Shown piece by piece: positions 5,470-59,329 of a stretch of DNA of 64,000 nucleotides. This DNA comes from Polyangiales bacterium (GTDB lineage: Bacteria > Myxococcota_A > Polyangia > Polyangiales > JADJQN01), in contig CAXNJO010000001.1 in assembly GCA_964202905.1 (NCBI GenBank), forward strand, positions 672,001 to 736,000. The letters are read 5' to 3'. A program made the translations under genes and the position numbers. The notes under the pieces were generated by a model that saw only the letters and a list, made by a program, of their open reading frames with translations, was not told where the DNA came from and did no database searches. How positions within the stretch are numbered: the stretch's first letter is position 1; every line of letters begins with the position of its first letter.

Positions 5470-5564
5470 TCATGACTCTTTCGCCCACGCTCTCTCGCAA
5501 AGCTCGCCTATTCGCACAAGGTCGCCAGGCGGTCGCGCCCCTGGCTCCCTCGGAGGCTCTCGGT

Positions 5565-12900: not shown

Positions 12901-14522
12901 TGTGGAGCTACTTCAACGTCGTCGAGGCGTACACCGAGGACCCGGAGCTCGAGAGCCCCGAGCGCAACCTCGACGGGCTCGTCGAGGCCGACCGTGCGGG
13001 ACGGACGCTGCTTCCGACCTACCGCGGCGGCGACAGCTGTGACGTCGACACCGACTGTCCGTACTCCCCCGGTCGCCTCTCGACCGCCGCGCCCTTCGCG
13101 CAGAAGTGCATCAAGAACCCGCGATACGCGCCCGTCCCCGAGCGCTGCGAGGGTGACCGGAACTGCCTGTGCTCCACGTTCGACGAGGATTTCAAGGACT
13201 ACGTCGTCTCCGGCACGCCGGCGCTCTACCCGGTGAAGTACCTCTTCTGCACCGACGACCGCACCAACGACATCTCGTGGTGCAACCGCTTTGACGCCGG
13301 CGAGTCTTTCCAGGAGTCGGTCGACAACTACCGCCGCACCTGGGAGGAGTCCTACCCCCGCGCTTACTACCGCAATTACCGCGCGGGCGGTGCCCGCGGT
13401 CGTGCGACATACGGCGCCATCCAGGACGCGGCGAAGATCTACCAGCACCTGTTCTTCCGCTACTTCTTCGAGCCGGAGTTCCGCTCGCAGAGCGGCCCGC
13501 TCGGGCTCGACGACCAGTACACCGCGTCGATCGACACGATGAACTGGCTCGCGGAGATCATCTCGCTGCCCGACGTCGGCGCCTACGAGCTCGACACGGC
13601 CGCGAACATTTACCGGCGCGTCAGCGAGAACCCGGACGCGCCGGGAGCCGATTTCGGCCTGCGCCCCGGCACCGGTTACCACATGTGGTCGGCCTACCAG
13701 ACTGGTCAGAACGGCTTCTTCCGCATGGAGCGGGCGGGCACGTTCAACGACAAGCTCTTCGCGATGTACGCCCTCGCGCTGCGTGACTGGAACCTCTCCT
13801 TCACGGTGGACGAGCGCTACTTCATCAACTTCTATGACCTGTTCCCGCTCGAGATGACTGAGTTCTTCGGCGCGTACATCCAGGACGACACCCGCGGTTA
13901 TGCGCCGCGTGTCCGGATGTCTTCGGCGGGTCCGGTCGTCCAGCACCTGAACTGGTGGCGTGGCAATTCGAACTGCGGGCCCTCGGGCGTCGAGCCATGC
14001 CGTGGCACGATCGACACCGTCTATCCGGAGCCGGCGCTTGATGGCACGAGCACGGAGCTTCTGCGCGACTGGGCGGCGATCCTCTCGCTCGCGCAGTTCC
14101 CGGTGTTCTACGACACGTCCTTCGAGCAGCGGCTCATGGTCTACAAGATCGGTTCGGGCGACGGCGCGGACATCCCCGCCACGCGCCCGGACGGAACCCC
14201 GACCTGTGGGTTCGGTGAGCCCGGTTGCACGCAGCCGGACTACATCGAGTACGAGTCGGATCGTCTCCACACCACGTACGTCGCGGTCGTCATCCGGCCC
14301 CGCTACGACTACAACCTGCCCGAGGAGGAGCTCGGACTCCGCCTGCTCGCCCGCATCCGCGGTCTGCAGGACGAGGCGCGCGCCCTCGAGGCGCTCCCGT
14401 CGCCGACCGCGGCGGAGCTCGCGCGGTCGCGTGCGCTGCGCACCCAGCTGGCGCAGGAGGACTCGTTCCTCGAGTACCTGATCGACGTTCAGCGCTCGTA
14501 CGGCATCAGCTCGTACCTCTGA
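9986..14522 (+). CDS. Large Cys-rich lipoprotein zinc-dependent metalloprotease, paralog 2 (one +1 frameshift at ~10466, probably a sequencing error)
   Basis: Lipobox SLFG-C. ORFs 9986-10528 and 10491-14522 join if one C at 10465/10466 is removed, giving DYNPVTGEETNVIVEN (paralog 1: QYNTTTGEELNVIEEN). HEMGHSVGLRH near 12579 and SIMDY. Confidence 0.85.
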
Positions 14523-26556: not shown

Positions 26557-27891
26557 ATGGCCGAGATGCACTTTCTTTCGTCGCTACGCCGGGATCCGTC
26601 CGCTTGCCTCGCGCGCTCGCTGCTGGCCGGGTCGCTGCTCGCCGGTTCCTTCGGGCTCGGGGCCTGCGGCGACGACGACACGCGCCCCCCGGCGCCGCCC
26701 CCACGCGACATGGACATCACGTTCGACGCCGGTGACGGGGGCATGCTGGACGGGGACGTCGGCGACGCGGGCGGCGGCGACGGCGGCACGGTGGCGGACG
26801 GCGGCACGGGCGCCTGCCGCGTCGAGGGCGACATCCTCACGCTCGCGACGGATGTCGTCGATCGGAGCGTGCGCGCCCCGGACGTCGCGGTGAGCGGCTC
26901 GACCTTCGCGATCGTGTGGACCGACGCGCGCAGCGGCGTCGCGGACGCGTTCGTGTACGCGTGGCCGGCCGCGGCCGCGTCGGGCACCGAGGTGCGCCTG
27001 ACCGACGACTTCTCGCCGACGCGCGACGTGCGCATCGCAGGACGCACGGATGGCTTCGCGGTGGGCTGGATCGACAACAGCCTCGGCTCGTTCGAGTTGC
27101 TCGCGCGGTCGCTCAGCGCGGAGGGCGCGATCGACGACCCGATCCAGCGGATCACCAACAACATGCAGCGCGAGGACTCGCCCTCGCTCGCGCAGCTCGC
27201 CGATGGCTCGGCGATGGTGGCCTGGCTCGAGTCCGACGGACTCGGCAGCCCGGCGACGTCGCGTGCGGTGCCGCTCGACGTCGTGGCCCGCGCGGTCGGG
27301 ACCCCGGCCATGCCCGTCGTGCCCCCGAGCCTGCCTGCGGATCCGCGGCTCGGGCGCCTCGGAGACGGTGCGGCGCTCGGCTGGACGGAAGCCGGCACCG
27401 TGTACGTCCAGCCGCTCACGCCGACGGGCGCGGCCCGCGGTGCGGCGACGACGATCAACACCGAGGGGAACGCGAGCACCTCGCCGTCGCTCGCGCTCGG
27501 CGACACGGGCGGCGGTGTCGCGTTCGGCGTGCTCGTCGCGGGCGCGCGCCAGGAGATCCGCATGCGCACGGTCGACGCGTCGGGGGTGCCCGATGGCCCG
27601 GAGGCCATCCTCACGCCGCCGCCGAGTCGCGGCACCGACCCCAAGATCGCCACGTTCGCCACCGGCTACGCCGTCGCGTACCGCACCAACGAGGGCAGCG
27701 GCAGCATCCGCCTCGCGTTCGCGACCGCCCTCGGTGAGTTGTCGAGCACCCTCGAGGTGGCCACCACGGCGTCGTCGCTCGGGAGCGGGCCCGGGCTCGC
27801 GGTCGCCCCGGACGGCCGCATGGTGCTCGCCTGGCTCGAGACCGACACCGTGACCGCGACCGTGCGCGCGGCGAAGGTGGTCTGCGAATGA
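26557..27891 (+). CDS. Lipoprotein with a D/G-rich linker and a probable beta-propeller
   Basis: Lipobox GLGA-C-GDDD and about 7 repeats of P.(L/V)A….(F/Y).(V/I)(A/V)W/Y, typical of propeller blades. Confidence 0.7.
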   Translation: MAEMHFLSSLRRDPSACLARSLLAGSLLAGSFGLGACGDDDTRPPAPPPRDMDITFDAGDGGMLDGDVGDAGGGDGGTVADGGTGACRVEGDILTLATDVVDRSVRAPDVAVSGSTFAIVWTDARSGVADAFVYAWPAAAASGTEVRLTDDFSPTRDVRIAGRTDGFAVGWIDNSLGSFELLARSLSAEGAIDDPIQRITNNMQREDSPSLAQLADGSAMVAWLESDGLGSPATSRAVPLDVVARAVGTPAMPVVPPSLPADPRLGRLGDGAALGWTEAGTVYVQPLTPTGAARGAATTINTEGNASTSPSLALGDTGGGVAFGVLVAGARQEIRMRTVDASGVPDGPEAILTPPPSRGTDPKIATFATGYAVAYRTNEGSGSIRLAFATALGELSSTLEVATTASSLGSGPGLAVAPDGRMVLAWLETDTVTATVRAAKVVCE

Positions 27892-29045
27892 CGCCGAATC
27901 GAGGCGCACTCTTGCGCGTCGCGTCGCTCGTCGTGGTCGCTCTTCTCGTCGGGGCGTGCGGCGACGACGGGCGACCGCCGACCCCACCGCCGGTGGATTT
28001 CGGCCTCGACGCATCGCGTGACGCCGGCGCATCCGACGCCGCGTCGTCCGACGGCGACGTTCCGCTGCCCGACGGCGAGCTCCTCGACGCCGCCCCACCG
28101 CCTGACGGCGAGGCGCCCGCGGACGCCGCCCCGCTGCTCGACGGCGAGGTACCCCCCGACGGCGAGGTGCCCCCCGACGCCGACGCGATCTTCGACGCGG
28201 GCGCGGAGTCCGATGGCGAGGTGCCTTTCGACGCCGATCTGTTGACCGACTTCGGCCCGCCCGGCTTGCCCGAGGGAGGGCCCCCGAGCACGTGCTTCGA
28301 CGACGGTGGCGTGTTCGACTCGTGTCGCTGCGAGCGGTTCGGTCCGGCGTGCGGCGCCTCGTCCGATCCGTCTTGCGCCGGCGGAGAGGCGTGTGTCGAC
28401 ACGGGTTGCGGCTTCGCGACCTGCCTGCCGACCGGCAGCACCTGCGTGGGCGACGCCGACTGCACGCCCGGCGCGACGTGCGTGGCGGGCAGCGGCGGGC
28501 TCGGCCGCTGCGCGCCGAGCACGCCGGATTGCGTCGACTCCCGGGATTGCCCGCTCGGCTACGCCTGCGAGCTCTCGCCCTCCGGCCGCTCTTGCGTGAA
28601 TCGCCGCATCCGCTGTGGTCCCGTGCAGCCTTGTCCGAACGGCTTCGAGTGCAGGCCCGCCGAAGGCATGGTCTTCGTCTGCGCCCCGGTGCACCGGCGG
28701 TGCAGCGACCCCGGCGCGTGTCCGGCCCGTCGCTGCCTCGACGTCGATCTCGACGGGCGAACGGAGTGCACCCACACCGGCGAATGTGTCAGCAACCTCT
28801 TGTGCGCCGACGACCTCGTGTGTGGCTTCGACCCGGACCGCGTCGCCATGGTCTGCGGACGGTTCGGTCCGTGTGAGCGCGAGTCGGACTGCGTCGCGGG
28901 CTTCACGTGCCTCGACGTCTGGGGCGATGGAATCAAGCAGTGCGAGCCCGAGGGCGGCTCCTGCGCGGCCGGTACCTGCCCCGCCCGGCAGGTCTGCGGG
29001 AGCCTCCTCTCGGGGGGGCCCCCACAGTGCCTCTCGTTTCTGTGA
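27888..29045 (+). CDS. Cys-rich lipoprotein (Pro/Asp linker plus C..D.DC..G..C repeats)
   Basis: Lipobox LVGA-C-GDDG, PDGE repeats and a Cys-dense C-terminal half. ATGA overlap with the upstream gene. Confidence 0.75.
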   Translation: MTPNRGALLRVASLVVVALLVGACGDDGRPPTPPPVDFGLDASRDAGASDAASSDGDVPLPDGELLDAAPPPDGEAPADAAPLLDGEVPPDGEVPPDADAIFDAGAESDGEVPFDADLLTDFGPPGLPEGGPPSTCFDDGGVFDSCRCERFGPACGASSDPSCAGGEACVDTGCGFATCLPTGSTCVGDADCTPGATCVAGSGGLGRCAPSTPDCVDSRDCPLGYACELSPSGRSCVNRRIRCGPVQPCPNGFECRPAEGMVFVCAPVHRRCSDPGACPARRCLDVDLDGRTECTHTGECVSNLLCADDLVCGFDPDRVAMVCGRFGPCERESDCVAGFTCLDVWGDGIKQCEPEGGSCAAGTCPARQVCGSLLSGGPPQCLSFL

Positions 29046-29176: not shown

Positions 29177-32100
29177 ATGCGCACACGCTGGCTCATCCTG
29201 CTCACGCTCACGGCGACCGCACTGACCGCGTGTTCCGAAGAGGACACCCCGGGTGCGGCGTCGTCGGCGCTCGACGGTGGCGTGATCCCGCCCTGCACGG
29301 ACGGCGACGGCGACGGCTTCGGCCTCGGCTGCGCGGCGGGTCTCGACTGCGACGACGCCGACCCGTCGAGCACCAACGAGTGTCGCAATTGTGCCTCACC
29401 CGAGACGGGCTGCGCGTGCGACGGCAGCGTCCTCGAGGAGACCTGCTACCTCGACCCGGTCGACGTCGGCGGGCGCTCGATGTGCCACTCGGGCACCCGC
29501 TTCTGCCGCGACGGAGCGTGGACCTCGTGCCTCCAGCTCGAGCGCTACGAGCTCTCGGGCAACCTGGCCGGCGCGGCCAGCGCCGCGCTCGTCACGGGCC
29601 CCGTCCCCTGCAACCCCTGCAACCCGTCCTGCTACTCGACGACGGATACCCCCGGTCCGTCCGACGTGACCACCGGCGGCACCGGCGTCGTCTACACCGC
29701 CACCCCCGGCGGTGTGACGCTCCCGATGGGCGGAACCACGACCGGCACGCTGCCCGACGCGGACGGCGATGGCGTCCCCGACCTCTACGACTCGGCCCCA
29801 ACGAACCCGGCGATCACCGGCTTCGAGGGCGGCTTCTTCCACGTGCTGCCCTACGGCGGCGCCGCGGTCGATCCCCTCTACCTCATGGTGCGCGTCCGGA
29901 CGGCGGACGTGTACTTCCTCATGGACACCACCGGGTCCATGGGGGGTGAGATCGACAACCTCAAGGCGACGCTCAACACCACGATCATCCCGTCGATCCG
30001 CACGACGATCCCGGATGCGTGGTTCGGCGTCGGTCGCCACGACGACTACCCTGTCAACGGTTACGGCGCGGAGTACTACTGCGACCCTTGGGGTTGCGCC
30101 TACATCGGCGACACGGTCTATCAGAACCTGGCCAACATCACCGACACGGCGACGGGGGGCGGCGCGACGACGGTCACCAACGCGGTGAACGCGCTCTACA
30201 CGCGCTGGGGCAACGACCTGCCGGAGTCGCAGATCCCCGCGCTCTACGCGATCGCGACGGGCTCGGCGCTCGGCCCTTATCTCCCGGGTTCGACGTGCGC
30301 GGGCAGCCGCTTCGGCTACCCGTGTTTTCGCCCCGGCACCGTGCCGATCATCATCCTCTTCACGGACGCGCCCTTCCACAACGGCCCGCCCGTCACAGGA
30401 ACGGCGACGACGGGCTTCGCCACCGGCACCGCGACGAACGGCGCCGCGCTCGAGATGGGCACCGCCACGCCCGACCCGCGGGTGAACGGGACCGCCAGCG
30501 CCTCGGCCAGCGTCACGGGCACCGCTTCGCTCGACCCGCGCGAGCCTGGCACGGCCACGCCGGCCCCGCGCACGAGCGGCACGGCCACCGCCTCGCGTGA
30601 GACCGGCACCGCGACGAACTACGCGCGCACGACGGGCACCGCGACGAACCAGGTGCCGCTCACGGGCACGCCGACGGCCTTCCCGGGCACCGCGGGCACG
30701 GCGACGGCGTCGGTCACGACGGGCACCGCGACCAACTACCCGCGCATCAGCGGTCTCGCGACGGCCGAGCCGGTCGTCAACGGCACCGCGACGCTGTACG
30801 CGCGGACGACGGGCACCGCGGACAACGCGCGCGTGACGGGCACGGCGACGCAGTATGTGCGGACGACGGGCACCGCGACGAACCAGGTGCCGCTCACGGG
30901 CACGCCGACGGCCTTCCCGGGCACCGCGGGCACGGCGACGGCGTCGGTCACGACGGGCACCGCGACCAACTACCCGCGCATCAGCGGTCTCGCGACGACC
31001 GAGCCGGTCGTCAACGGCACGGCGACGCAGTACGCGCGGACGACGGGCACGGCGGACAACGCGCGCGTGACGGGCACGGCGACGCAGTATGTGCGGACGA
31101 CGGGCACCGCGACGAACCAGGTGCCGCTCACGGGCACGCCGACGGCCTTCCCGGGCACCGCGGGCACGGCGACGGCGTCCGTCACGACGGGCACCGCGAC
31201 CAACTACCCGCGCATCAGCGGTCTCGCGACCGCCGAGCCGATCGTGACGGGCACGGCGACGCAGTACGCGCGGACGACGGGCACCGCGGACAGCCCGCGC
31301 GTGACGGGCACGGCGACGCAGTACGTGAGGACGACCAGCCTCGCCTCCAACCAGCCCGTCGTCACCGGCACGCCCAGCCCGTACCCTGCCACGCTCGGCA
31401 CCGCGTCGAACTCCGTCACCACCGGCACGGCGGTCGCGTCGCCGCGCATCACGGGCATCGCCAGCAACGAGCCCCGCGTGACGGGCACGCCCACGGCCTA
31501 CCCGCGCACCTTCGGGACGGCGACGAACTCGATCCACACGGGCACGGCCTCCGCCTACCCGCGTACGACGAGCACGGCCTCGAACTACCGCGAGACGGGC
31601 ACGGCGACGGCCTATCCGCTCACGACGAGCACGGCGTCGAATCTGGTTCCCGTCGTCACCGGTACGGCGACCCTGGCCGTGGTCACCGGGACGGCGACCG
31701 CTCGATCCACTTTCGTCCGGAACGGGCTGAACGACACGTCGCCGGACTGGGCGTGGACTACCAACCAGTTCGTCGGTGACGTCATTCAGGTGTTTGCGGG
31801 TACGGGCAGGGGCGAGAACCGGGTCATCTCGTCGCACGCCGACAGGTCGTTCACGATGTCGAGCAACTGGCGGAACCGTCCAACGACGGGCAGCTTTTAT
31901 CGCGTCGTTCCGAAGGCGGCTGACGACAATCTCTACGACCTCGCCAAGGTTTGGACGACCAATCAGTTCGTCGGGTACACGGTCACGATCACGAGCGGCA
32001 CGGGCATCGGGCAGACGCGTCTGATCACGGCGAACAACGTGAAGAGCCTCACGGTCTCGCCTGCGTGGACGACGACGCCGAGCACGACCAGCGGCTATGC

Positions 32101-35100
32101 GATCTATCCGAACAACACGCTCAACGACACGACTCCAAGCTGGTCCGGCACCATCACCGGCGCGCGCGTGCGTATCCGGAGTGGCACGGGTGCCGGGCAG
32201 GAGAGCACGGTCACGGCCAACACGGCGACCCAGCTCACCGTGTCGCCGGCATGGACGACCCCACCGAACGCGACGAGCGTCTACGAGGTGATCGCGGCCT
32301 CGGAGCTTAACAAACTCTACGACACCACCAAGACGTGGGCGGTCAACCAGTTCACGACGTTCACCTATGTCGTGCGGATCACCGGTGGTCGCGGTTCGGG
32401 GCAGTCGGCCACGGTGACCGCCAACTCCGCCAACGTCCTGACCGTCTCGCCCGCGTGGCCGATCCTCCCGGATACGACCAGCACCTACGAGATCGCCGAG
32501 GCGCTCTTCAACGACAAGCTCTATGACCTGACTCCGAGCTGGACGGGCAGCGTCGGCGGCGCGCGCGTGCGCATCCTGAGCGGCACCGGGGCGGGCCAGG
32601 AGCGCAACATCACGGCAAGCGCTGCGACTCGCCTCACCGTCTCGCTCGCTTGGACGACCCTCCCGGACGCGACGAGCGTCTACGAGGTGATCGCGGCGGC
32701 CGATCTCAACAAGCTCTACGACACGACGCGCAGCTGGACGCTCAATCAGTTCATGGGCTTCACCGTCACCATCACCGGCGGTCGTGGTGCCGGCCAATTC
32801 GCCGCCGTCTCCTCGAACACGGCGACCGTGCTCACGGTCGCGGCCGCGTGGGCGACCCTGCCGGACGCGACGAGCACGTACGACATCCGCGAGGCGGCCT
32901 TCAACACGCGGCTCTACGACACGACCACGCCCGGTTGGACGGGGACCGTGACGGGCTCGACGGTGTTCATCACCTCGGGAACGGGGGCCGGCCAGAACCG
33001 CGTGATCTCGTCCAACACGCCGACGGTGTTGAACGTCACCCCCGCTTGGGTGACGCAGCCGGACGCGACGAGCAACTACGAGGTCGTCGCCGCCGCGGAC
33101 GTCGTCCGCCTCTACGACACGACGAAGAGTTGGGTGGTCAACCAGTTCATGACTGGCTATGTGGTGAACATCCTCTCGGGTGCAGGCGTGGGCCAGATCC
33201 GCGCGATCTCGAGCAACACCGCGAACGTCCTCACGGTCTCGGCGTGCGTGGGGCGACGATGCCCAACAACACGAGCACCTACGAGATCCGCGAGACGGTC
33301 AGCAACGACAAACTCTACGACACCTCGCCGAGCTGGGCGCCGGCGGACGTGCTCACGGGTCGGACGATCTTCCTGACCTCGGGCATCGGGCTCGGGCCAG
33401 TCGCGCGTCATCAGCGCGAACAACGCGAACAAGATCACCGTCTCGCCGGCGTGGGGCACGCTGCCGGATGCGACGACCGGGTACGCGATCGTCGCAGCGG
33501 CCGACCTCGCCAAGATGTACGTGCCCGTGCGTCCGTGGACGCCGGGCCAGTTCGTCGGCTTCACGCTCACCCTCACGGGCGGACCCGGCGCGGGGCAGTC
33601 GCGCCCGATCACGGCCAACTCGACGACGGACGTCACCGTCATGTCGGCTTGGATGACGCTGCCCGACGCCACGACGACCTACGAGATCCGTGAGACGGTC
33701 ATCAACAACCAGCTCTACGACATGACGCCTGCGTGGGCGGGAAGCGTGAACGGCTACACGCTGTTCCTCACGGCGGGCACGGGCGCCAGCCAGACCCGGA
33801 CGGTGACGGCGACGGCGCCGACGCGGCTCACCGTGAGCAGCCCGTGGGCCACGCAGCCCGATGCGACGACGCAGTACCGCCTGGTCGCGCCGGCGGTCTT
33901 CACGACGGTCACGGACACGACCAAGTCGTGGATCATGAACGAGTTCGCGACGGCGTTCACCTTCCGCATCGTCTCCGGCACGGGCGTTGGTCAGACGAGC
34001 GTGATCACCAGCAACACGAGCAACTCGCTGACGCTCGCGACGGCGCTGACGACGCTCCCGGACGCCACGACCGTCTACGAGATCCGCGAAACCGTCATCA
34101 ACGACAAGCTCTACGACACGACGCCGAGCTGGTCGGGGAGCGTGGTGGGCTCGACGGTGTTGCTGACGGGCGGGACGGGCGCGGGCCAGCTCCGCACGAT
34201 CTCTGCGAACACGACGACGAAGCTGACGGTGTCGGCGGTTTGGACGACGAACCCGGACGCGACGACGCAGTACGAGGTCATCCCGGCTGCGGAGCTGACG
34301 AAGCTCTACGACACGTCCAAGTCGTGGGCGATGAACCAGTTCACGCCCGGGTACATCGTGAGCATCCTGACGGGCGCGGGCGCGGGCCAGACGCGCAACG
34401 TCGTGTCGAACACGAACAACGTCGTCACGGTGGATGCGCCGTGGATGACGCTGCCGAACACGACGAGCACGTACGAGATCCGCGAAGCGGTGATCAACAA
34501 CAAGCTGTACGACGCGACGGTGCCGGGCTGGGTGACGGGCCTCGCGCTGAATGGCTCGACGGTGCTCCTGACGGGCGGCAGGGGCGCGGGCCAGTCGAAT
34601 ACGATCATGGCGAACACGGCGACGAAGCTGACGCTCAACAGCGCGTGGGCGCCGGAGCCGGATGCGACGACGACGTACGAGGTCGTGGCGCCGGCGGAGT
34701 TCACGAAGCTCTACGACACGACGAAGAGTTGGGTGGTCAACCAGTTCATGACTGGCTATGTGGTGAACATCCTGACGGGCGCGGGTGCGGGCCAGACGCG
34801 CCCCATCGTGTCGAACACGAACAACGTGCTGACGGTGTCTGCGCCGTGGTCACCGCTGCCGAACGCGACGAGCACGTACGTGATCCGCGAAGCGGTCACG
34901 AACGACAAGCTCTTCGACACGACGGTGCCGAGCTGGGCGCCTGCGGCCGCGTGCTGAACGGGCTCGACGGTGTTCATCACGGCAGGGCACGGGCGCGGGC
35001 CAGTCGCAGCACGATCACGGCGAACACGGCGACGCGCCTCACGGTCAACAGCGCGTGGGGCACGCAGCCGGACGGGACGAGCCAGTACGAGATCGTCGCG

Positions 35101-38100
35101 GCGGGCGAGTTCACGAAGCTGTACGACACGACGCGTTCGTGGACGCCCGGCCAGTTCGCGGGCTTCACGGTGACGATTATTGGGGGCGCGGGCGCGGGCC
35201 AGGTTCGCCCGGTGACGGGGAACGGCGCGACGGACCTGACGGTGTCTGGGGCGTGGATGACGCTGCCGAACAGCACGAGCACGTACGAGATCCGCGAGAC
35301 GGTGATCAACGACAAGCTCTACGACACCACAGTGCCGGCGTGGTCGGGGGTCGTGAGTGGGTTGACGCTGGTGCTGACGGGCGGGACGGGCGCGGGTCAG
35401 ATCCGCACGATCTCTGCGAACACGGCGACGAAGCTGACGGTGTCGGCGGTGTGGACGACGCAGCCGGACGCGACGACGCAGTACCTGGTTTTCGCGGGCA
35501 CGGAGCTGAGCCGTCTGTACGACACGACCAAGAGCTGGGTCGTGGGCGAGTTCATGGGCTTTGAGCTGAGCATCACGGCGGGTCCGGGAGCCGGTCAGAC
35601 GCGGACGGTGTCTTCGAACACGTTGAATTCGCTCACGATCTCGGCGCCGTGGATGACACTGCCCAGCACGGCGAGCACTTATGTGCTGCGTGAGGTGGTG
35701 GTCAACAACAAGCTCTACGACACGACGGTGCCTGCGTGGTCGGGGAGCGTGATGGGCTCGACGGTGTTGCTGACGGGCGGGACGGGCGCGGGCCAGCTCC
35801 GCACGATCTCGACGAACACGGCGACGAAGCTGACGGTGTCGGCGGTGTGGACGACGAACCCGGACGCGACGACGCAGTACGAGGTCATCCCGGCGGCGGA
35901 GCTGACGAAGCTCTACGACACGACCAAGTCGTGGGCGATGAACCAGTTCACGCCCGGGTACATCGTGAGCATCCTGACGGGCGCGGGCGCGGGCCAGACG
36001 CGCAACGTCGTGTCGAACACGAACAACGTCGTCACGGTGGATGCGCCGTGGATGACGCTGCCGAACACGACGAGCACGTACGAGATCCGCGAAGCGGTGA
36101 TCAACAACAAGCTGTACGACGCGACGGTGCCGGGCTGGGTGACGGGCCTCGCGCTGAATGGCTCGACGGTGCTCCTGACGGGCGGCAGGGGCGCGGGCCA
36201 GTCGAATACGATCATGGCGAACACGGCGACGAAGCTGACGCTCAACAGCGCGTGGGCCGCCGGAGCCGGATGCGACGACGACGTACGAGGTCGTGGCGCC
36301 GGCGGAGTTCACGAAGCTCTACGACACGACGAAGAGTTGGGTGGTCAACCAGTTCATGACTGGCTATGTGGTGAACATCCTGACGGGCGCGGGTGCGGGC
36401 CAGACGCGCCCCATCGTGTCGAACACGAACAACGTGCTGACGGTGTCTGCGCCGTGGTCACCGCTGCCGAACGCGACGAGCACGTACGTGATCCGCGAAG
36501 CGGTCGTGAGCGACAAGCTGTTCGACACGACGGTGCCGGGCTGGGTAACGGGCCCCGCGTTGAACGGCTCGACGGTGTTCATCACGGCAGGGACGGGCGC
36601 GGGTCAGTCGCGCACGATCACGGCGAACACGGCGACGCGCCTCACGGTCAACAGCGCGTGGGGCACGCAGCCGGACGGGACGAGCCAGTACGAGATCGTC
36701 GCGGCGGGCGAGTTCACGAAGCTGTACGACACGACGCGTTCGTGGACGCCCGGCCAGTTCGCGGGCTTCACGGTGACGATTATTGGGGGCGCGGGCGCGG
36801 GCCAGGTTCGCCCGGTGACGGGGAACGGCGCGACGGACCTGACGGTGTCTGGGGCGTGGATGACGCTGCCGAACAGCACGAGCACGTACGAGATCCGCGA
36901 GACGGTGATCAACGACAAGCTCTACGACACCACAGTGCCGGCGTGGTCGGGGGTCGTGAGTGGGTTGACGCTGGTGCTGACGGGCGGGACGGGCGCGGGT
37001 CAGATCCGCACGATCTCTGACGAACACGGCGACGAAGCTGACGGTGTCGGCGGTGTGGACGACGCAGCCGGACGCGACGACGCAGTATGTGGTCCTCGCC
37101 AGCACCGAGCTGAGCCGTCTCTACGACACGACCAAGAGCTGGGTCGTGGGCGAGTTCATGGGCTTTGAGCTGAGCATCACGGCGGGTCCGGGAGCCGGTC
37201 AGACGCGGACGGTGTCTTCGAACACGTTGAATTCGCTCACGATCTCGGCGCCGTGGATGACACTGCCCAGCACGGCGAGCACTTATGTGCTGCGTGAGGT
37301 GGTGGTCAACAACAAGCTCTACGACACGACGGTGCCTGCGTGGTCGGGGAGCGTGATGGGCTCGACGGTGTTGCTGACGGGCGGGACGGGCGCGGGCCAG
37401 CTCCGCACGATCTCTGACGAACACGGCGACGAAGCTGACGGTGTCGGCGGTTTGGACGACGAACCCGGACGCGACGACGCAGTACGAGGTCATCCCGGCT
37501 GCGGAGCTGACGAAGCTCTACGACACGACCAAGTCGTGGGCGATGAACCAGTTCACGCCCGGGTACATCGTGAGCATCCTGACGGGCGCGGGCGCGGGCC
37601 AGACGCGCAACGTCGTGTCGAACACGAACAACGTCGTCACGGTGGATGCGCCGTGGATGACGCTGCCGAACACGACGAGCACGTACGAGATCCGCGAAGC
37701 GGTGATCAACAACAAGCTGTACGACGCGACGGTGCCGGGCTGGGTGACGGGCCTCGCGCTGAATGGCTCGACGGTGCTCCTGACGGGCGGCAGGGGCGCG
37801 GGCCAGTCGAATACGATCATGGCGAACACGGCGACGAAGCTGACGCTCAACAGCGCGTGGGCCATCGAGCCGGACGCGACGACGACGTACGAGGTCGTGG
37901 CGCCGGCGGAGTTCACGAAGCTCTACGACACGACGAAGAGTTGGGTGGTCAACCAGTTCATGACTGGCTATGTGGTGAACATCCTGACGGGCGCGGGTGC
38001 GGGCCAGACGCGCCCCATCGTGTCGAACACGAACAACGTGCTGACGGTGTCTGCGCCGTGGTCACCGCTGCCGAACGCGACGAGCACGTACGTGATCCGC

Positions 38101-41100
38101 GAAGCGGTCGTGAGCGACAAGCTGTTCGACACGACGGTGCCGGGCTGGGTAACGGGCCCCGCGTTGAACGGCTCGACGGTGTTCATCACGGCAGGGACGG
38201 GCGCGGGTCAGTCGCGCACGATCACGGCGAACACGGCGACGCGCCTCACGGTCAACAGCGCGTGGGGCACGCAGCCGGACGGGACGAGCCAGTACGAGAT
38301 CGTCGCGGCGGGCGAGTTCACGAAGCTGTACGACACGACGCGTTCGTGGACGCCCGGCCAGTTCGCGGGCTTCACGGTGACGATTATTGGGGGCGCGGGC
38401 GCGGGCCAGGTTCGCCCGGTGACGGGGAACGGCGCGACGGACCTGACGGTGTCTGGGGCGTGGATGACGCTGCCGAACAGCACGAGCACGTACGAGATCC
38501 GCGAGACGGTGATCAACGACAAGCTCTACGACACCACAGTGCCGGCGTGGTCGGGGGTCGTGAGTGGGTTGACGCTGGTGCTGACGGGCGGGACGGGCGC
38601 GGGTCAGATCCGCACGATCTCTGACGAACACGGCGACGAAGCTGACGGTGTCGGCGGTGTGGACGACGCAGCCGGACGCGACGACGCAGTACCTGGTCCT
38701 CGCCAGCACCGAGCTGAGCCGTCTCTACGACACGACCAAGAGCTGGGTCGTGGGCGAGTTCATGGGCTTTGAGCTGAGCATCACGGCGGGTCCGGGAGCC
38801 GGTCAGACGCGGACGGTGTCTTCGAACACGTTGAATTCGCTCACGATCTCGGCGCCGTGGATGACACTGCCCAGCACGGCGAGCACTTATGTGCTGCGTG
38901 AGGTGGTGGTCAACAACAAGCTCTACGACACGACGGTGCCTGCGTGGTCGGGGAGCGTGGCGGGTTCGACGGTGTTGCTGACGGGCGGGACGGGCGCGGG
39001 CCAGCTCCGCACGATCTCTGACGAACACGGCGACGAAGCTGACGGTGTCGGCGGTGTGGACGACGAACCCGGACGCGACGACGCAGTACGAGGTCATCCC
39101 GGCTGCGGAGCTGACGAAGCTCTACGACACGACCAAGTCGTGGGCGATGAACCAGTTCACGCCCGGGTACATCGTGAGCATCCTGACGGGCGCGGGCGCG
39201 GGCCAGACGCGCAACGTCGTGTCGAACACGAACAACGTCGTCACGGTGGATGCGCCGTGGATGACGCTGCCGAACACGACGAGCACGTACGAGATCCGCG
39301 AAGCGGTGATCAACAACAAGCTGTACGACGCGACGGTGCCGGGCTGGGTGACGGGCCTCGCGCTGAATGGCTCGACGGTGCTCCTGACGGGCGGCAGGGG
39401 CGCGGGCCAGTCGAATACGATCATGGCGAACACGGCGACGAAGCTGACGCTCAACAGCGCGTGGGCCATCGAGCCGGACGCGACGACGACGTACGAGGTC
39501 GTGGCGCCGGCGGAGTTCACGAAGCTCTACGACACGACGAAGAGTTGGGTGGTCAACCAGTTCATGACTGGCTATGTGGTGAACATCCTGACGGGCGCGG
39601 GTGCGGGCCAGACGCGCCCCATCGTGTCGAACACGAACAACGTGCTGACGGTGTCTGCGCCGTGGTCACCGCTGCCGAACGCGACGAGCACGTACGAGAT
39701 CCGCGAGACCGTCGTGAGCGACAAGCTCTACGACACGACAGCGCCGAGCTGGGTAATGGGCACCGCGTCGTACGGCTCGACCGTGTTCATCACCGCGGGG
39801 ACGGGCGCGGGGCAGTCGCGCGTCGATCACGGCGAACACCGCGACCCGCCTGACGCTCGCCTCGAGCTGGGTGACGCTGCCCGACGCGACGAGCCAGTAC
39901 CGGATCGCCGGGGCCGCCGATGTGCTGCGCCTCCTCGATGCGGGCGCGGGATGGACGGTGGATCGGTTCGTCGGATACACGGTCGAGATCCTCTCCGGCG
40001 CGGGCGCGGGTCAGACGCGCGTGATCAGCTCGAACACCGTCGACGTCCTCACGGTCACCACCGCCTGGACGACGCTGCCGGACGCGACGAGCAACTACCA
40101 GATCCGCGAGACCAACCTCGCCGACAAGCTCTTCGACACGACGAAGAGCTGGACGACGAACGTCTACGCGGGCACGACGGTCACCATCACGGGCGGGACG
40201 GGCGTCGGCCAGGTCCGCACGGTGGTGAGCAACACGAACAACCGCCTCACCGTCACGCCCGCGTGGGCCACGCTGCCCGGCGCGACGACCACGTACCGGG
40301 TCGGGACTGGCGCCGTCGGCGAGCTCAACAAGCTCTACGACTTCACGCAGGCGTGGGTCCCCGGGAGCCTCGTGGGCTTCACGGTCCGGATCACCGGCGG
40401 TCTCGGCTCGGGTCAGACCCGCACGATCTCCGCCAACGACGCGACCAGCGTCACCGTCTCGGTGAACTGGGTCACCGTGCCGAACACGACGAGCACGTAT
40501 GAGATCACGGGTCTCAACAACGTGCTCTACGACCTCGACCTCCCGACGCCCTGGGCGACCAACCAGTTCGCCGGTTACAAACTCTTCATCAGCTCGGGGC
40601 GCGGCGCGGGTCAGACGCGCACGGTCTCCGGCAACGCCGCGCGCACCCTCACCGTCTCGGCGGCGTGGGCGACGATCCCCGACACCACGAGCGTCTACCA
40701 GCTCTCGAACGAGGACTACTACACCCCGTACTTCGCGGGTGGCCACGTGCCTCCGACCTACACGCAGACCGTGGCCGCGCTGAACGCGCGCGGCATCAAG
40801 GTCATCGTCGTCGATTCGAGCGGCGGCTACGCCCCCGCGCTCCGAGACGCGCGGGAGATCGCCACGGCGACCGGCGCCCTCGGGCCGACGGGCGCGCCGC
40901 TCGTCTACAGCATCAGCCCCTCCGGAACGGGTCTCGGGACGGCGGTCGCGAGCGCGGTCGCCGACCTCGCGAGCTACTCGCGTCTGGACATCACCGCGCG
41001 CGCCAACGACAACCCGGCGACGCCGTTCGACGAGCGCACGCTCGTGGCGTCGATCCTCGCGGTGGCGGGCTCGTACGCGCCCGGTCGCTGCACGGGGATC

Positions 41101-41649
41101 ACCGGCGGCGTGCAGTTCAACCAGTGCCTGCCGGGCACCGGCGTGACCTTCCAGGTCAACTTCACGGGCGTCGTCATGCCGACCAGCGTGCCGCAGCGCT
41201 TCGATTTCACGATCGACACGCTCGGCAACGGCAGCCAGATCATATCGACGACGCCCGTCACGATCATCATCCCGCCGACCTCGCCCGCGTATCCGCCCAG
41301 CGGCACGTACACGCGCGACTTCGACGCCACGATGCGCTGCGCCGGCACGGAGGTTCCGCGCTGGGGCAACCTGTCGTGGACGGCGACGCTCCCCACGGGC
41401 ACCAGCATCTCCTGGACGCTGCGCTCGGCGACGACGACGGCGGCCCTCGCCGCGGCGACGCCGGTGACCTTCTCGACGCCGACCTTGAGCAGCCCGCAGA
41501 ACGCCGGCAGCCAGCTGATCGCCGGCGGGGTTCCCGCGACCCTGCCCCACATGCGCGTGACCGCGACGCTGAACTCCAACGCGGCGCGCAGCGCGGCGCC
41601 GACCCTCTCGAGCTTCAACCTGCTCTACGACTGCGTGGCGGGCGAGTAG
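29177..41649 (+). CDS. Giant VWA-domain lipoprotein adhesin (~4,150 aa) with a 45-strand + 45-module repeat insertion; split into several ORFs by single-base insertions
   Basis: Lipobox LTA-C-SEED, CTDGDGDGFG…DCDD and DADGDGVPD Ca/metal-binding motifs, MIDAS-like YFLMDTTGSM, and ILFTDAPFH. Repeat arrays span 30392-40710. The VWA resumes at PPTYTQTVAALNARGIKVIVV, followed by C-terminal beta domains. Frame changes at ~33245, ~33390, ~34950-35010, ~36258, 37013, 37410, 38617, 39014 and 39825. Confidence 0.85.
30625..31335 (+). repeat. Three near-identical tandem 234-bp (78-aa) units, each made of 8 TGTAT-type strands
   Basis: RTTGTATNQVPLTGTPTAFPGTAGTATASVTTGTATNYPRISGLATAEPVVNGTAT.YARTTGTADNARVTGTATQYV occurs three times. 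The antisense ORFs 30736-30969 and 30970-31203 confirm the 234-bp period. Confidence 0.95.
34100..39720 (+). repeat. About 3.5 near-identical tandem ~1602-bp (534-aa) units, each made of 8 ~66-aa modules
   Basis: The marker AAGAGTTGGGTGGTCAACCAG occurs at 34724, 36332, 37936 and 39540 (spacing 1608/1604/1604, i.e. 1602 plus extra bases). Confidence 0.93.
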
Positions 41650-47815: not shown

Positions 47816-50107
47816 TCAGTCGCCGACCTGCAGGCCGAGCGTGACGCCGAGCATGCCGCCGTCGTCGAAGTACGCGCCCTGCAGACCGATCGAGAGGCGC
47901 TCGGTCGGGCGCACCTCGCCGGTCACGTAGAAGCCCACGCGGTCGTCGATCCAGCGGCCGGTCGCGGGGTAGGTGACGACGCCGAGCCCGTAGCGGAACT
48001 GCACGTCCTCCATGTGCCGGACCATCGCGCCGTGCGCCGCGAGCATCCCGACGAGGCCGAGGCGGAAGGTCGTCGGGCCGAGCAGCGCGCCCGCGTCGAG
48101 GTAGCCCACCTCGAGGCCGAGCACCGGGAAGCCCGCGCGCAGGTGCCCGCCGACGCGCACGCGCAGGCGCTCCTCGACGACGCGCGGCAGGCCGTCGACG
48201 CGCGTCGCGGTCGAGAGCAGATCGCCGTAGAGCGCGAGGCCCGCGGCGAAGCGCGGCTCCTCGAGCTCGACCCAGGCCGTCGCGAAGCCGCCGCGCTCGT
48301 CGAGGTGCGTTCGGAGCGGCTCACCGACCACCGCGCGCGTCGTCGCCGCGATGAGCGCGCCTGCGCTCGCGCCGACCCCGAGTGTCCACGGGCCGCCGCC
48401 GAGCGGGCGCCGCGCGGCGTAGCGGAGCCAGCCGCCGAAGCCCTGCCGATCGAAGAGCGTGCTCGCGCCGCCGCAGCCGTCGATGACGACGTAGGACGTC
48501 GCGCCGCCCGCGAGCGCGAGGCCGACCCAGTGGCGGAAGTCGTGCCGCTCGGCGGCGTCGCGCGCGTCGGCGGGTGCCTCGAGTTCGCGCGGGAGCGTGT
48601 CCGTCGCGGGGGCGTCGGGGAGGGCGGGGAGCGACTCGGTGGCCGGGGCGTCGGGGATCGGCGGGAGCGTGCTCGCCGCGTGATCGTCGGGGGCCGGCCC
48701 GCTCGCGGGGGGCGGATCGGTGGGCGTGGCGAGCCCGAGGGCGCGGCGGCGCGCGCGCAGCGCCGCGAGCGGATCGCCGAGCGTACCGAGGCGCACGAGC
48801 AGCGCGCGGCGGTGATCGACCTCGTAGACCCAGCTGCGGCGCTCGTCGCGGCGCGGGGTCGCGCGCGGTCCATCGGCGCGCGCACCGTCGGGCTCGAAGG
48901 CGCGCGCGAGCACTGCGCCGAGCGGGATCGCGGCGAGCGCGAGCGCGACGAGCGGGGCGCCGAGCGCGGACAGTGCGCGCAGCGCCGCGGCGCGTGGAAA
49001 CGGGCGGATTCGCGTCGGACAGGGGCGCGTCGGCGACGCCGAGATGGGATGTGAAGAGGGGATGTCCGGCGAGGAGGGGATGGGCCGCGATGTGGGGATT
49101 CGCGGCCAGAATCCGATTGGGAGCGAAGAGGGCATCGGCAGCGCAGGCGCCGCGGCGAGCAGCGTCAGCACGTGGAGCTGGTGGAGAAACGGTGTCTGCG
49201 CGCCGTCCACGAGGACGCCTGCGAGCCACGCAGCGCCGAACACCGCCCAGCCCGCGCGCGTCGCGTCGTGCGCTGGGGTGACCGGCACCGCGTGCGGCGT
49301 GGCCGCGTCGTGCGAGGCCGCGTCGTGCGAGGCCGCGTCGTGCGTGGCCGTGCCGTCGTGCGCCGCGCGTCGGGCGCGTCGCTCGAGCACGAGGGCCGCG
49401 CCGAGCAGACCGAGCGCGCCGAGCGCGAACGCGCCCTGCAGCCGATCGAGCCCGGCGACCGCGCCGAGCTTCGCCCACCAGACGTTGATCATCGCGCGTG
49501 TGCCGTCGATCCCCGCGCGCACCGCGAGGTCGAAGGCGCCGGTCAGCGCGAGCACCGCGCCCTCCGAGCGCAGGCGCCGCGCGAGGGCGCCGAGCAGCGG
49601 TATCCAGAGCAGGAGGGCGAGCGACTCGTAGAGCGGAGAGGGGTGCACGCCGAGGCTCGTCGGCGCGTCCGAAGCGATGTGCCCGAGCGCGAGGTGCAGC
49701 GCGAAGGCGGCGGTGCCCGCCTCGTGGTGCACGGCCCAGGGCAGCGCGGTGGGCGTGCCGAAGCAGCAGCCCGCGACGAGGCAGCCGATGCGTCCCACGG
49801 CGACGATCAGGGTGAGCCCGAGCGCGAGCGCGACGAGCGGCGGGCGTCGCAACCCGAGCGCGCGCTGGGCCACGAGCCACGCGCCGACTCCCCCCGCGAG
49901 CGCGCCGATCACGCTCGGCAGGAGCGCGGCGCCGACCGAGGCGCCCGCGCCGAGCGCTGCCGTCGTGAGCAGCGCGTGGCGCCAACGCCAGCCGCGGCGC
50001 AGCCCCGCGCCGAACAGCGCGGCGACGAGCAGCGCCACCGGGAGCCGCCCGAAGATCGTCCACGCGTCGGGGTGCAGCGCGCTGCGCGCGAGGTCGGACC
50101 AGCTCAT
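47816..50107 (-). CDS. Lgt-like (prolipoprotein diacylglyceryl transferase family) membrane domain fused to a C-terminal beta-rich, barrel-like domain
   Basis: GRIGCLVAGCCFG.PT.LPW and HPSPLYES Lgt-family motifs, a Pro-rich linker, and C-terminal alternating strands ending GVTLGLQVGD. Start is MSWSD after an AAAGGAG RBS. Confidence 0.65.
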   Translation of the reverse strand: MSWSDLARSALHPDAWTIFGRLPVALLVAALFGAGLRRGWRWRHALLTTAALGAGASVGAALLPSVIGALAGGVGAWLVAQRALGLRRPPLVALALGLTLIVAVGRIGCLVAGCCFGTPTALPWAVHHEAGTAAFALHLALGHIASDAPTSLGVHPSPLYESLALLLWIPLLGALARRLRSEGAVLALTGAFDLAVRAGIDGTRAMINVWWAKLGAVAGLDRLQGAFALGALGLLGAALVLERRARRAAHDGTATHDAASHDAASHDAATPHAVPVTPAHDATRAGWAVFGAAWLAGVLVDGAQTPFLHQLHVLTLLAAAPALPMPSSLPIGFWPRIPTSRPIPSSPDIPSSHPISASPTRPCPTRIRPFPRAAALRALSALGAPLVALALAAIPLGAVLARAFEPDGARADGPRATPRRDERRSWVYEVDHRRALLVRLGTLGDPLAALRARRRALGLATPTDPPPASGPAPDDHAASTLPPIPDAPATESLPALPDAPATDTLPRELEAPADARDAAERHDFRHWVGLALAGGATSYVVIDGCGGASTLFDRQGFGGWLRYAARRPLGGGPWTLGVGASAGALIAATTRAVVGEPLRTHLDERGGFATAWVELEEPRFAAGLALYGDLLSTATRVDGLPRVVEERLRVRVGGHLRAGFPVLGLEVGYLDAGALLGPTTFRLGLVGMLAAHGAMVRHMEDVQFRYGLGVVTYPATGRWIDDRVGFYVTGEVRPTERLSIGLQGAYFDDGGMLGVTLGLQVGD

Positions 50108-50276
50108 CGCAGCTCCTTTTGGCTCACGGCGAGGATACGTCCAACGCAGCCGCGCCTGCGCCGACATCCACGCTCGGACTGCCGCCGATCGTGCGTCGAC
50201 GAGGGTGGGCAGTGTCTCGCAAGATGATGATCCAACGCGGTTTTTCGGCGGCCTGCGCGGGATGCATGGGAGTCCG

Positions 50277-56244: not shown

Positions 56245-57555
56245 TCAACGCGCGGCGCTGCGGCCCGTGAGCCAGCCGGTGGTCGTCGCGCAGCCGAGGC
56301 CGGTGCCGTCGTGCGCCGGGTCGTGGCCGGCGAGGAGCGCGCCGCAGGCGTAGAGATCGGGGGCGCGCGGGGTGCCGTCACGGTCGAGCGCGCGGTAGGC
56401 GTCGTCGGTGGCGACGCCGGCGCGGGAGGCGGGGGACGCGCGGAAGGGGCTCGTGCCGAAGAGGGCGGCGGTGTCGCGGCCGGCGCTGCTCGAGGCGAGC
56501 GCGAGGACGCGTCCGTCGACGTGGACGGGGAGGCCGGCGAGGGGCTCGAGGAGCTCTCCGCCGCGGACGACCAGGCCGCCGCTCGTGTGCTTGCCCGTCG
56601 CGAGGATGATGGCCTTGCCGCGCAGCGTCTCACCGTCCTCGAGGGTGATGGTGGTGCCCTGCGGACGCGCGTCGATCGCGCGGACCCGCGCGGCGCGGCG
56701 CGCGCAGCCGCTCTCGCGCAGCGCGGCGTCGATGCGGCGCGCGAGGCGCAGGCCCTGCGGCCCGGCGAGCGGCGCGACGACCTCACCGACGGGGACGCCG
56801 ACGAGCGCGCGCAGCGCGGGGGCGACGTCGTCACGCAGCAGGCCGAGCAGCGGCGGCAGGAGGAGCGCCGTGTCCCCGCGCCCTGCGAGCGCGCGCCCGA
56901 GGGCCTCGGCGAGCCGGGCGAGGCCCGCTTCGCCGTCGGCCGCGGTGGCGCGCTCGTGCGGGTGCGGGAGCGTGTCGCTGGGCGCGGCCGTGATCGGGAT
57001 GGGCCGTGCCTCGAAGCGCCGCGCGTCGCCCGCGTGGGCCGCGAGATCCGCGAGCGAGGCCGCGACGAAGGCGCTCTCTCCGGCGCGTGGCCCGGGGAAG
57101 ACGCCGACCGCGATGCAACCGGATTGCATCTCGTCGATCGCGAGCACGGCGTGCTGCGCGGTGCCGGCACGGCGCGGGAGACCGAGATCCGTCGCGAGCA
57201 GGAGCCCCGGGCCGTCGAGGTCGAGGGGCCGGTAGATCGCGAGCGCACCGAGCACGCGGGCGTGGGCCGCGCGCACGGCCTCGACGAGGCCCGCGCCGAG
57301 CTTCGCGTAGGGGTGGTGTGCGTCGTCGCGGGCCCGCGCGACGAGGGCCTCCGCGAGCGTGCGCGCCGGGCGGAAGACCTGCTCGGGCGAGGCTGCGGGA
57401 TCCGTCGCGACGTCCCACGCGCCGCCCGCGAGCACGCTGGCCCCGGCGTGCGCGTCGAGCACCGTGACGCGCGCGCCCGCGTCCCGCGCCCCGAGCGCGG
57501 CGGCGAGGCCGGCGACGCCCGCGCCGATCACGATCACGTCGTCGGCGCGGCTCAT
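56245..57555 (-). CDS. glpB: Anaerobic glycerol-3-phosphate dehydrogenase subunit B-like flavoprotein
   Basis: DVIVIGAGVAG, PQGLRL, ILATGK..SGGL, EPL.GLPV, LYACGALL…G.GLG.A. ATGA-coupled to glpA. Confidence 0.75.
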   Translation of the reverse strand: MSRADDVIVIGAGVAGLAAALGARDAGARVTVLDAHAGASVLAGGAWDVATDPAASPEQVFRPARTLAEALVARARDDAHHPYAKLGAGLVEAVRAAHARVLGALAIYRPLDLDGPGLLLATDLGLPRRAGTAQHAVLAIDEMQSGCIAVGVFPGPRAGESAFVAASLADLAAHAGDARRFEARPIPITAAPSDTLPHPHERATAADGEAGLARLAEALGRALAGRGDTALLLPPLLGLLRDDVAPALRALVGVPVGEVVAPLAGPQGLRLARRIDAALRESGCARRAARVRAIDARPQGTTITLEDGETLRGKAIILATGKHTSGGLVVRGGELLEPLAGLPVHVDGRVLALASSSAGRDTAALFGTSPFRASPASRAGVATDDAYRALDRDGTPRAPDLYACGALLAGHDPAHDGTGLGCATTTGWLTGRSAAR

Positions 57556-59264: not shown

Positions 59265-59329
59265 GCCCGCAGCGGCCGAATATGGGCCGCTGCGGGGCGA
59301 AGGCAACGCGTGTCGTGGTCGGGTCGCCG

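Follow-up and report, generated by a model that had tools for sequence, protein, structure and literature searches.

Two opposed repeat arrays in a giant Polyangiales gene suggest a deeply nested hairpin rod on an integrin-beta-like head

In a stretch of 64,000 nucleotides from a Polyangiales bacterium (GenBank assembly GCA_964202905.1, contig CAXNJO010000001.1, positions 672,001 to 736,000; called the window below) we analyzed one giant gene, which encodes an array of about 45 short leading strands followed by an array of 45 small modules. Its product is predicted from sequence and models to be a lipoprotein whose integrin-beta-like head carries both arrays as one insertion. We consider it probable that the arrays form a nested out-and-back hairpin rod, with about 45 strands going out and 45 barrels coming back. 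A first interpretation made from the letters alone (the sequence-only reading) had proposed this nested topology. It is now supported by the leads found in homologues, by the insertion of the arrays in a betaI loop, by a two-chain structure prediction and by the numbers of strands and modules in small relatives.

The proposed mechanism is as follows. The head would be a betaI/VWA-like domain set in a hybrid-like domain, like the integrin beta headpiece, and would be lipid-anchored in the membrane. The chain would exit by the loop after strand beta4 (..TDAPFHNGPP) as about 45 consecutive 10-residue segments, turn at the tip, where strand 46 and module 1 would make one ordinary domain, and come back via 45 KOW/SH3-like barrels, entering the betaI domain again at ..PPTYTQT. 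An outgoing segment would in each case be an extra beta-strand on beta1 and beta5 of one returning barrel, strand s going with module 47-s, and each domain would sit inside the next one outward, between its lead strand and its body. The outcome would be a two-chain hairpin rod, presumably rigid and exposed at the cell surface, which if straight would have a length of the order of 0.1-0.15 micrometre (45 x ~3 nm) and would project from the metal-site face of the head. The two arrays would grow by separate block duplications, with selection keeping the balance. With an integrin-like head, a lipid anchor and a rod, the protein might act as an adhesin; a spacing role is also conceivable.

The strand and module arrays

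The units of the leading array are about 10 amino acids (aa) long, with the core (T/S/N)G(T/L/I)A(T/S), the first core within the array being at 30395. A loose regular expression (regex), x-[GS]-[TLIF]-[AP]-[TSDV], finds 46 cores in 30395-31717. Two short units of 4-5 aa come first and 44 units of 9-14 aa follow; the 45 strands counted in the sequence-only reading are therefore right to within one (44-46). The region covers 442 aa, i.e. 9.8 aa per module, and its 10-residue repeat is regular, with much Thr, Gly and Pro. Odd units are of a Y type (TGTATxYxRT) and even units of an N type. By Tandem Repeats Finder (TRF) the period is 234 bp, corresponding to 8 strands, and 95% identity is kept over 3.2 copies. 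From one strand copy to another, 4-8 codons change synonymously and 4-7 non-synonymously, and the GTAT core is unchanged in all of them. That changes between copies spare the core argues against a free linker.

The trailing modules were counted with a hidden Markov model (HMM) built from the first seven of them. Its 51 matches reduce to 45 modules after joining the halves separated by frame breaks, and the same figure had been reached earlier by repairing the frame. The modules are 63-68 aa long (about 66 aa) and alternate in the module alignment between an A type (W..NQF.G) and a B type (PSW.G). The unit listing and this alignment bear out what the sequence-only reading had stated, namely two alternating types in each array and irregular outer ends. 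The module is confined to this gene in the genome of 5.68 Mb and 19 contigs, all 52 HMM matches lying inside it. Searches of Pfam, NCBIfam and PHROGs gave nothing significant on the strands, on the modules or on the C-terminal part of the window's protein, and Pfam at E <= 0.1 gave no family on seven modules.

The relation between the two arrays becomes visible in relatives. Their canonical domain has a 'GTAT(S)G(S/T)' strand directly before the module start 'TTLxDTxKxW'. A GxA[TSE] motif at most 12 aa upstream was present for 195 of 402 N-complete modules from 146 other proteins, against 310 of 7,300 random windows (4.2%), and stand-alone homologous domains starting with GTAT, an expectation of the nested topology, do exist. 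In the giant gene only one module of the 45 has such a lead. This is module 1, into which the last strand runs straight (VTGTATARSTFVRNGLND), as had been noticed at the outset; it is the most divergent module of all, and with strand 46 it makes one canonical lead-plus-barrel domain. The other 44 have none, and the leads that they lack are, as far as the sequence tells, exactly what the N-terminal array consists of. At this level the gene has the pattern of recursive insertion: 45 lead motifs separated from 44 lead-less bodies, with a predicted pairing in the nested register.

Both arrays contain recent super-repeats of eight units (Table 1), a degree of repetition that greatly exceeds chance. 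Diverged units come after the recent repeats in the strand array and before them in the module array (modules 5-12), a layout that a mirror relation would give. We compared the profiles of identity to the unit eight away: mirror pairing of the two arrays gives r 0.80, against r 0.50-0.57 for unshifted parallel pairing, and parallel pairing with a free offset of +4 also gives r 0.80.

Module fold and strand-module pairing

A profile of 23 intact modules was searched against 1.84 billion representative proteins. At E <= 0.001 it matched 12,581 proteins and at E <= 1e-10 it matched 3,808, and a matching protein typically carries 2-13 copies. By these searches the module family is widespread and multi-copy, and it appears to have no dedicated Pfam or NCBIfam model. 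A search of 40 relatives of the same order did not recover the module, and 7 of 400 other genomes of the phylum matched it (E <= 1e-8), figures which give no evidence on its origin. The family also includes proteins of about 950 aa with seven module copies and no signal peptide (P0040, P0043 and others). In P0007, P0014, P0022 and P0048, KOW-like modules, partly nested, lie inside a protein-arginine deiminase (PAD) catalytic domain, and in P0007 Pfam PAD matches the two stretches flanking the modules.

AlphaFold2 (AF2) predicts each of four modules as a five-stranded barrel (strands assigned by DSSP), with a predicted local distance difference test (pLDDT) of 80-94. In Foldseek the 24 best matches of this model are SPT5 (DSIF) chains, KOW6-KOW7 and KOW2-KOW3 entries among them, with a best E of 4.5e-4 and TM-scores that are low, the query being a four-domain chain; a phage baseplate chain is also among the best matches. 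By sequence the modules do not belong to Pfam KOW, the KOW-like G.GAGQ stretch giving only a weak 29-residue match to uL24m (E 0.28). Three relatives, P0003, P0007 and P0115, score above the cut-off of Pfam PF09356 (Phage_BR0599; E 8e-6 to 3e-11), which has no match on the window's modules; it is a related family, of which these modules are not members. At the fold level the module is predicted to be a KOW/SH3-like small beta-barrel. The five-stranded SH3-like barrel is common to Spt5/NusG KOW domains, PF09356 and the modules, whereas the lead strand and the self-nesting are features of the window's module family and not of KOW domains.

The pairing itself was addressed by a two-chain prediction, in which modules 2-5 (31922-32704, 9-row alignment) were combined with strands 42-45 (31568-31684, 13-row alignment), the tip being omitted. 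The interface score ipSAE was 0.61, 0.62 and 0.62, against 0.00 for the best of 3 controls. The mark used for this score is reached by 116 of 157 solved complexes and by 2 of 215 mismatched pairs, counts which hold only roughly with self-built alignments. The runs share at least 92% of contacts, with a partner pLDDT of at least 84. About 200 contacts connect partner residues 1-38 with beta1 and beta5 in each of the four modules. In the pairs of lowest error, strand 45 lies on beta5 (the GYAI strand) of module 2, and strand 44 meets module 3 at beta1 and at the Tyr of beta5. Strands 42-45 are predicted to lie antiparallel on modules 5-2, in the register expected from the nested model. For the modules themselves, pLDDT is 78-82 with unrelated partners and 90 with the strands.

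These models modify one statement of the sequence-only reading, according to which the TGTAT strand completes each module. A strand-barrel interface is indeed predicted, but the barrels are already complete in AF2, and the strand comes as an added edge strand. Since the modules fold whole without it, 'completes' is too strong a word, and the strand would rather augment the barrel.

Insertion site, relatives and counter-evidence

The N-terminal 405 residues of the protein have 223 homologues in the length range searched, and the named ones come from Sandaracinaceae, Polyangiales or Myxococcales metagenome bins. HMMs for the two flanking halves show that the insertion point is identical in every homologue. 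The content of this site varies: 6-7 residues in five homologues, one PPC domain in 71, and 2-4 PPC domains or other inserts in the others. In some members of the host family the same loop holds PA14-containing inserts, and P0269 (1,855 aa) has there a 1,038-residue insert with 12 PPC-like matches, another large expansion.

The host domain was characterized on the homologue P0153, to which the window's flanks are 62% and 69% identical (69% for the C-half). Its AF2 model (pLDDT 85.6, 73-row alignment) shows strand-helix alternation on both sides of its PPC domain. It matches the integrin beta6 betaI domain (5ffg_B) with Z 23.6 and a root mean square deviation of 2.7 A over 214/248 residues, in a model range (241-618) that spans the insert at ~395-540. 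The model also aligns with the beta3, beta6, beta7 and beta8 headpieces (Z 22-24), and longer alignments (215-713) cover the hybrid domain too. A Rossmann-like betaI fold is matched across both halves, P0153 being a stand-in for the window. In the integrin beta headpiece betaI is inserted in the hybrid domain, and the homologue matches both parts; the host protein differs from integrin beta in being bacterial, in having no known alpha subunit and in its huge extra insertion, absent from integrins.

Signals in the sequence point the same way at lower strength. Neither Integrin_beta nor VWA is above the Pfam cut-off on the window: VWA_4 scores 18 bits (E 0.0022, cut-off 27) and Integrin_beta 14.2 bits (E 0.037, cut-off 24.8), and P0153 is likewise under the cut-off for Integrin_beta with 19.9 bits. 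The host domain has a TDAxxH-type motif after beta4 and a MIDAS-like (metal ion-dependent adhesion site) DxTxS; for the DxSxS of MIDAS the window reads D-T-T-G-S, with Thr replacing the first Ser. TDAxxH-type and MIDAS motifs are known from integrins. A sequence search of the PDB with the host-family profile matched only a thrombospondin-type-3 (TSP3)-like stretch and a second VWA domain. Pfam VWA matches in uninserted homologues were considered as the host domain and rejected, as they belong to a second, C-terminal VWA domain.

By homology, then, the block of strands and modules is inserted in the loop after beta4 of a betaI/VWA-like domain. A block situated inside one betaI loop must have its two ends close together, which geometrically excludes a single-pass rod and requires an out-and-back path.

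Small relatives allow a comparison of strand and module numbers. In the P0003 family the leads come first and the lead-less modules follow, the whole being inserted in another host domain. Lead units and modules number 4/4 and 2/2 in P0003, 9/9 and 2/2 in P0270, 4/4 in P0273, 2/2 in P0272 and 3/3 in the P0046 group of four near-identical proteins. Over nine arrays the length of the lead region correlates with the number of modules (r 0.96), at 7.7-12.5 aa per module. The family nests at other positions as well: after beta1 in P0026, which has 2 and 3 'lead+beta1' units and then 2 and 3 bodies; in the GxG loop in P0094 and P0111; and before the trailing strand, with the missing strands supplied later, in P0019 (4/4), P0036 (2/2) and P0018 (3/3). 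Trailing-strand nesting is also apparent by eye in P0015 and P0056 (4/4) and in the N-truncated P0120 (2/3); the balances of these trailing 'closer' strands were counted by eye, a regex count being noisy. The expectation of the sequence-only reading that strand number equals module number in homologues holds at 2/2, 3/3, 4/4 and 9/9, and fails in one array of P0271.

A number of observations weigh against the nested hairpin. P0271 has, beside a 2/2 array, about 8 lead units for 6 modules. No comparable strand array was found in any other protein among 8,000 candidates scored (proteins of 769-2,449 aa), only the window's own being recovered, and the module is present in none of 119 host homologues fetched. 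The counts depend on the assembly, and indel errors are known in its near-identical repeats of 1.6 kb (98-100% identical). The zones of recent repeats hold 24-25 strands but 28 modules; for this reason the equal totals are not a trivial by-product of matched block duplications, and the match is due either to selection that balances the arrays or, in part, to luck. A recognisable lead is missing from 207 of the 402 family modules, which indicates that the strand is not needed for folding. Folding of the modules without their strand had been named in advance as a result that would speak against the nesting, and this is partly what AF2 gives: the modules form complete five-stranded barrels without strands (pLDDT 80-94), and when the contiguous centre (strands 43-46 and modules 1-4) is modelled the strands stay at pLDDT 54-59, strands 45 and 46 being coil. 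The alignment used for this centre had zero rows in the strand columns, and the complex and contiguous predictions appear to differ in confidence without contradicting each other on placement. Lastly, the structural evidence is all in silico, and the alignments of the complex are self-built from paralogous repeats.

Part of these data would suit another explanation, in which the leading array is a return tether, i.e. an extended, flexible and perhaps glycosylated Thr/Gly-rich linker whose length matches the modules for geometric reasons, with no strand-by-strand pairing. Such a tether would account for the low pLDDT of the contiguous strands, for modules that fold fully alone and for the lead-less modules of the family. 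Moreover, among the closest host homologues, proteins with more PPC domains have a longer linker ahead of them, from 47, 35 and 30 aa before two to 57 and 60 aa before three and 74 aa before four. This scaling fails in distant homologues, where the lead is 17-19 aa before two PPC domains (P0246, P0258 and P0259) or 18-22 aa (P0184, P0189, P0190 and P0203). A tether nevertheless seems unlikely to us: the core of the repeat is the very GTAT motif that leads canonical domains, and it stays the same from copy to copy although the residues on either side change; the alternation of two strand types keeps pace with that of the two module types; and in the complex prediction the interface is confident and its register specific, where controls give 0.00.

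The leading array could instead fold on itself, as a beta-solenoid or as a polyproline-like or collagen-like stalk, in series with modules arranged as beads on a string. Its regular 10-residue Thr/Gly/Pro-rich repeat would lend itself to this, and in the strand region of the contiguous AF2 model residues 9-13 and 16-19 form short strands, a possible local hairpin. We give this possibility hardly any weight. In a serial stalk the ends of the insertion would be separated by roughly 100 nm or more, although they have to join one and the same betaI loop; searches with the array gave no family or fold match; and its confidence is low when contiguous and high only against modules.

Assembly, known systems and neighbouring genes

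As assembled, the gene is broken into ten frame segments (order 2>1>2>1>2>0>1>2>0>1). Gene callers split it into at least five open reading frames (ORFs), and P0001, P0002, P0006 and P0008 are its pieces in public protein sets. If the repeats were mis-assembled, or the gene a decaying pseudogene, the equality of 45 and 45 would be meaningless. The nine frame switches and the near-identity of the 1.6-kb blocks are in keeping with such an artefact, as are the recurrence of the same extra base in sister copies (37020/38624 and 37415/39019) and the nature of the data, a 19-contig metagenome-type assembly present in runs that are lake-water metagenomes. Several results make it quite improbable all the same. 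Read-derived contigs of runs X1 (0 mismatches) and X2 omit exactly the three extra bases (33245, 33255 and 33388) that cause the switches of modules 8 and 9; this comparison spans 32900-33900, a stretch present in lake-water and freshwater metagenome runs, and covers two of the nine breaks, the other seven sitting in long repeats. In alignments the frame breaks are single-base insertions relative to intact sister copies, with extra bases at 34942, 34944, 34960, 34988, 35008, 36257, 37020, 37415, 38624, 39019, ~39822 and ~39867. The shifted frames all translate into perfect modules without stop codons, and unbroken ORFs of 1,343-1,506 aa exist elsewhere in the window. The totals of the two arrays agree despite their unequal block structure, and relatives are balanced likewise. 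Because contigs exist without the extra bases, the shifted frames are intact and the other long ORFs are unbroken, we interpret the nine frame breaks as probable consensus errors of a region rich in repeats and not as gene decay.

Out-and-back chain paths are known from flagellin-type proteins, in which distal domains are nested in proximal ones, and rods whose length is set by repeat number are known as the 'periscope' stalks of Gram-positive surface proteins. Nesting of the flagellin type, that of contractile-sheath proteins included, has few levels and unlike domains, and periscope stalks are single-pass tandem arrays with no returning chain. The closest case of deep nesting is Si3 of the cyanobacterial RNA polymerase beta' subunit, a six-level recursive insertion of 8-10 domains cited as an example in a 2026 survey of 2.7 million domains (PMC13114784). 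Si3 resembles the giant gene in being built from copies of a single small beta domain, each copy inserted in the preceding one. It differs in its six levels against about 45, in the fold (sandwich-barrel hybrid motif, SBHM, against a KOW/SH3-like barrel), in having no separate array of single strands as it is described there, and in being located in the trigger loop of the polymerase and not in a surface lipoprotein.

In the stalk of streptococcal antigen I/II, according to PMC6586375, an N-terminal repeat region (A) pairs with a later repeat region (P) in an out-and-back path. Its pairing is between an alpha-helix and a polyproline-II helix, and a distinct V domain sits at the tip, whereas the giant gene would pair beta segments with barrels, has no distinct tip domain, has its stalk inserted in another domain and bears a lipobox in place of LPXTG. 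In antigen I/II the two regions have matching repeat numbers. An antiparallel pairing of two repeat regions of this type is found in the giant gene by prediction only (ipSAE 0.62 versus 0.00), and the specifics of antigen I/II (alpha-helix/polyproline-II pairing, V domain at the tip, LPXTG anchor) are absent from it.

In open-access papers and preprints we found no description of the module family, nor of nesting deeper than six levels. The earlier claim that no case this deep had been described stands in this respect, the deepest found in print being six levels. The depth would be unprecedented, and the layout of a strand array plus a module array distinct, within the known classes of recursive insertion and paired-repeat stalks. 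With more reserve than for the topology itself, we lean towards regarding such a 'mirror-repeat' hairpin rod as a new repeat-protein architecture. In it, strand and barrel arrays of one domain family would run in opposite directions and be zipped one-to-one over about 45 nesting levels, with a length set by paired copy-number changes; the rod would grow from the ligand-binding face of an integrin-beta-like head, and its module family would nest in itself at four or more positions.

If this is true, recursive domain insertion can be iterated tens of times, and a double-chained rod of about 0.1 micrometre can be programmed genetically in its length from 66-residue parts. It would also raise a folding question, how a chain finds 45 long-range partners in order; an evolutionary problem, how two separate tandem arrays in one gene keep equal copy number; and points of mechanics and of nanoscale spacer design. 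The analysis further draws attention to an undescribed self-nesting KOW-like module family without a family model, and to a myxobacterial family with an integrin-beta-like head in which one loop is a docking site for varied inserts.

The coordinates of the gene and of its parts are given in Table 1. The gene starts with the ATG at 29177 and stops at 41647-41649, in a window with a G+C content of 66-78%. As in bacterial lipoproteins, the translation begins with a signal peptide ending in a lipobox Cys (MRTRWLILLTLTATALTAC). A thrombospondin-type-3-like DADGDGVPD motif lies at 29756-29782 (Pfam TSP_3 E 0.048, under the cut-off).

Table 1. Coordinates in the window of the giant gene and of the features assigned to it
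Feature	Position	Strand	Basis or remark
Whole gene	29177..41649	+	~4,150 codons with frame breaks read through; ORF pieces and frames
Signal peptide, lipobox L-T-A-C (Cys19)	29177..29233	+	Read directly off the translation
Cys-rich N-terminal region	29234..29860	+	Conserved in host-family homologues
First part of hybrid-like domain and N-half of betaI (VWA-like) domain	29861..30391	+	Start approximate, by homology
MIDAS-like VYFLMDTTGSM	29909-29941	+	
Strand beta4 IIILFTDAPFHNGPP	30347-30391	+	Directly before the strand array
Leading strand array, 44-46 units	30392..31717	+	Regex, TRF, alignment
Recent 8-strand super-repeat, strands 9-33	30602..31333	+	TRF, copy comparison
Older diverged 8-strand copy, strands 34-41	31334-31567	+	Follows the recent repeats
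Putative hairpin tip, strand 46 and module 1	31685..31921	+	Sole module with its own GxA[TSE] lead
Trailing array, 45 modules	31718..40716	+	HMM count
Nine frame switches, modules 8, 9, 17, 23, 27, 29, 35, 37, 41	33245..39867	+	Three-frame view
Recent 8-module super-repeat, modules 13-40	34100..39716	+	Period 1,604 bp, 93-100% identity
C-half of betaI domain, then rest of hybrid-like domain, C-terminal beta domains, stop	40717..41649	+	
PPTYTQT (betaI C-half)	40750-40770	+	
alpha4-beta5, ending ALNARGIKVIVVDSSGG	to 40827	+	betaI C-half

The neighbours of the giant gene include P450, FAD oxidase and Met-zincin-like proteins, none of which helps to interpret it. Directly upstream, 27888-29045 (+) encodes a 385-aa Cys-rich putative lipoprotein with no family match. 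Two adjacent genes at 5472-9974 and 10491-14522 (+), of 1,500 and 1,343 aa, have short DUF4953 (Met-zincin) matches just above the Pfam cut-off. On the opposite strand, the 783-aa ORF at 47816-50167 (-) contains a prolipoprotein diacylglyceryl transferase (Lgt) domain at residues 88-226 only and is far longer than a usual Lgt. The 1,506-aa ORF at 57552-62072 (-) has N-terminal Cys-rich MopE-like and disintegrin-like motifs together with a complete FAD-dependent DAO and DAO_C pair of the glycerol-3-phosphate-oxidase type, an unusual fusion if it is a single gene.

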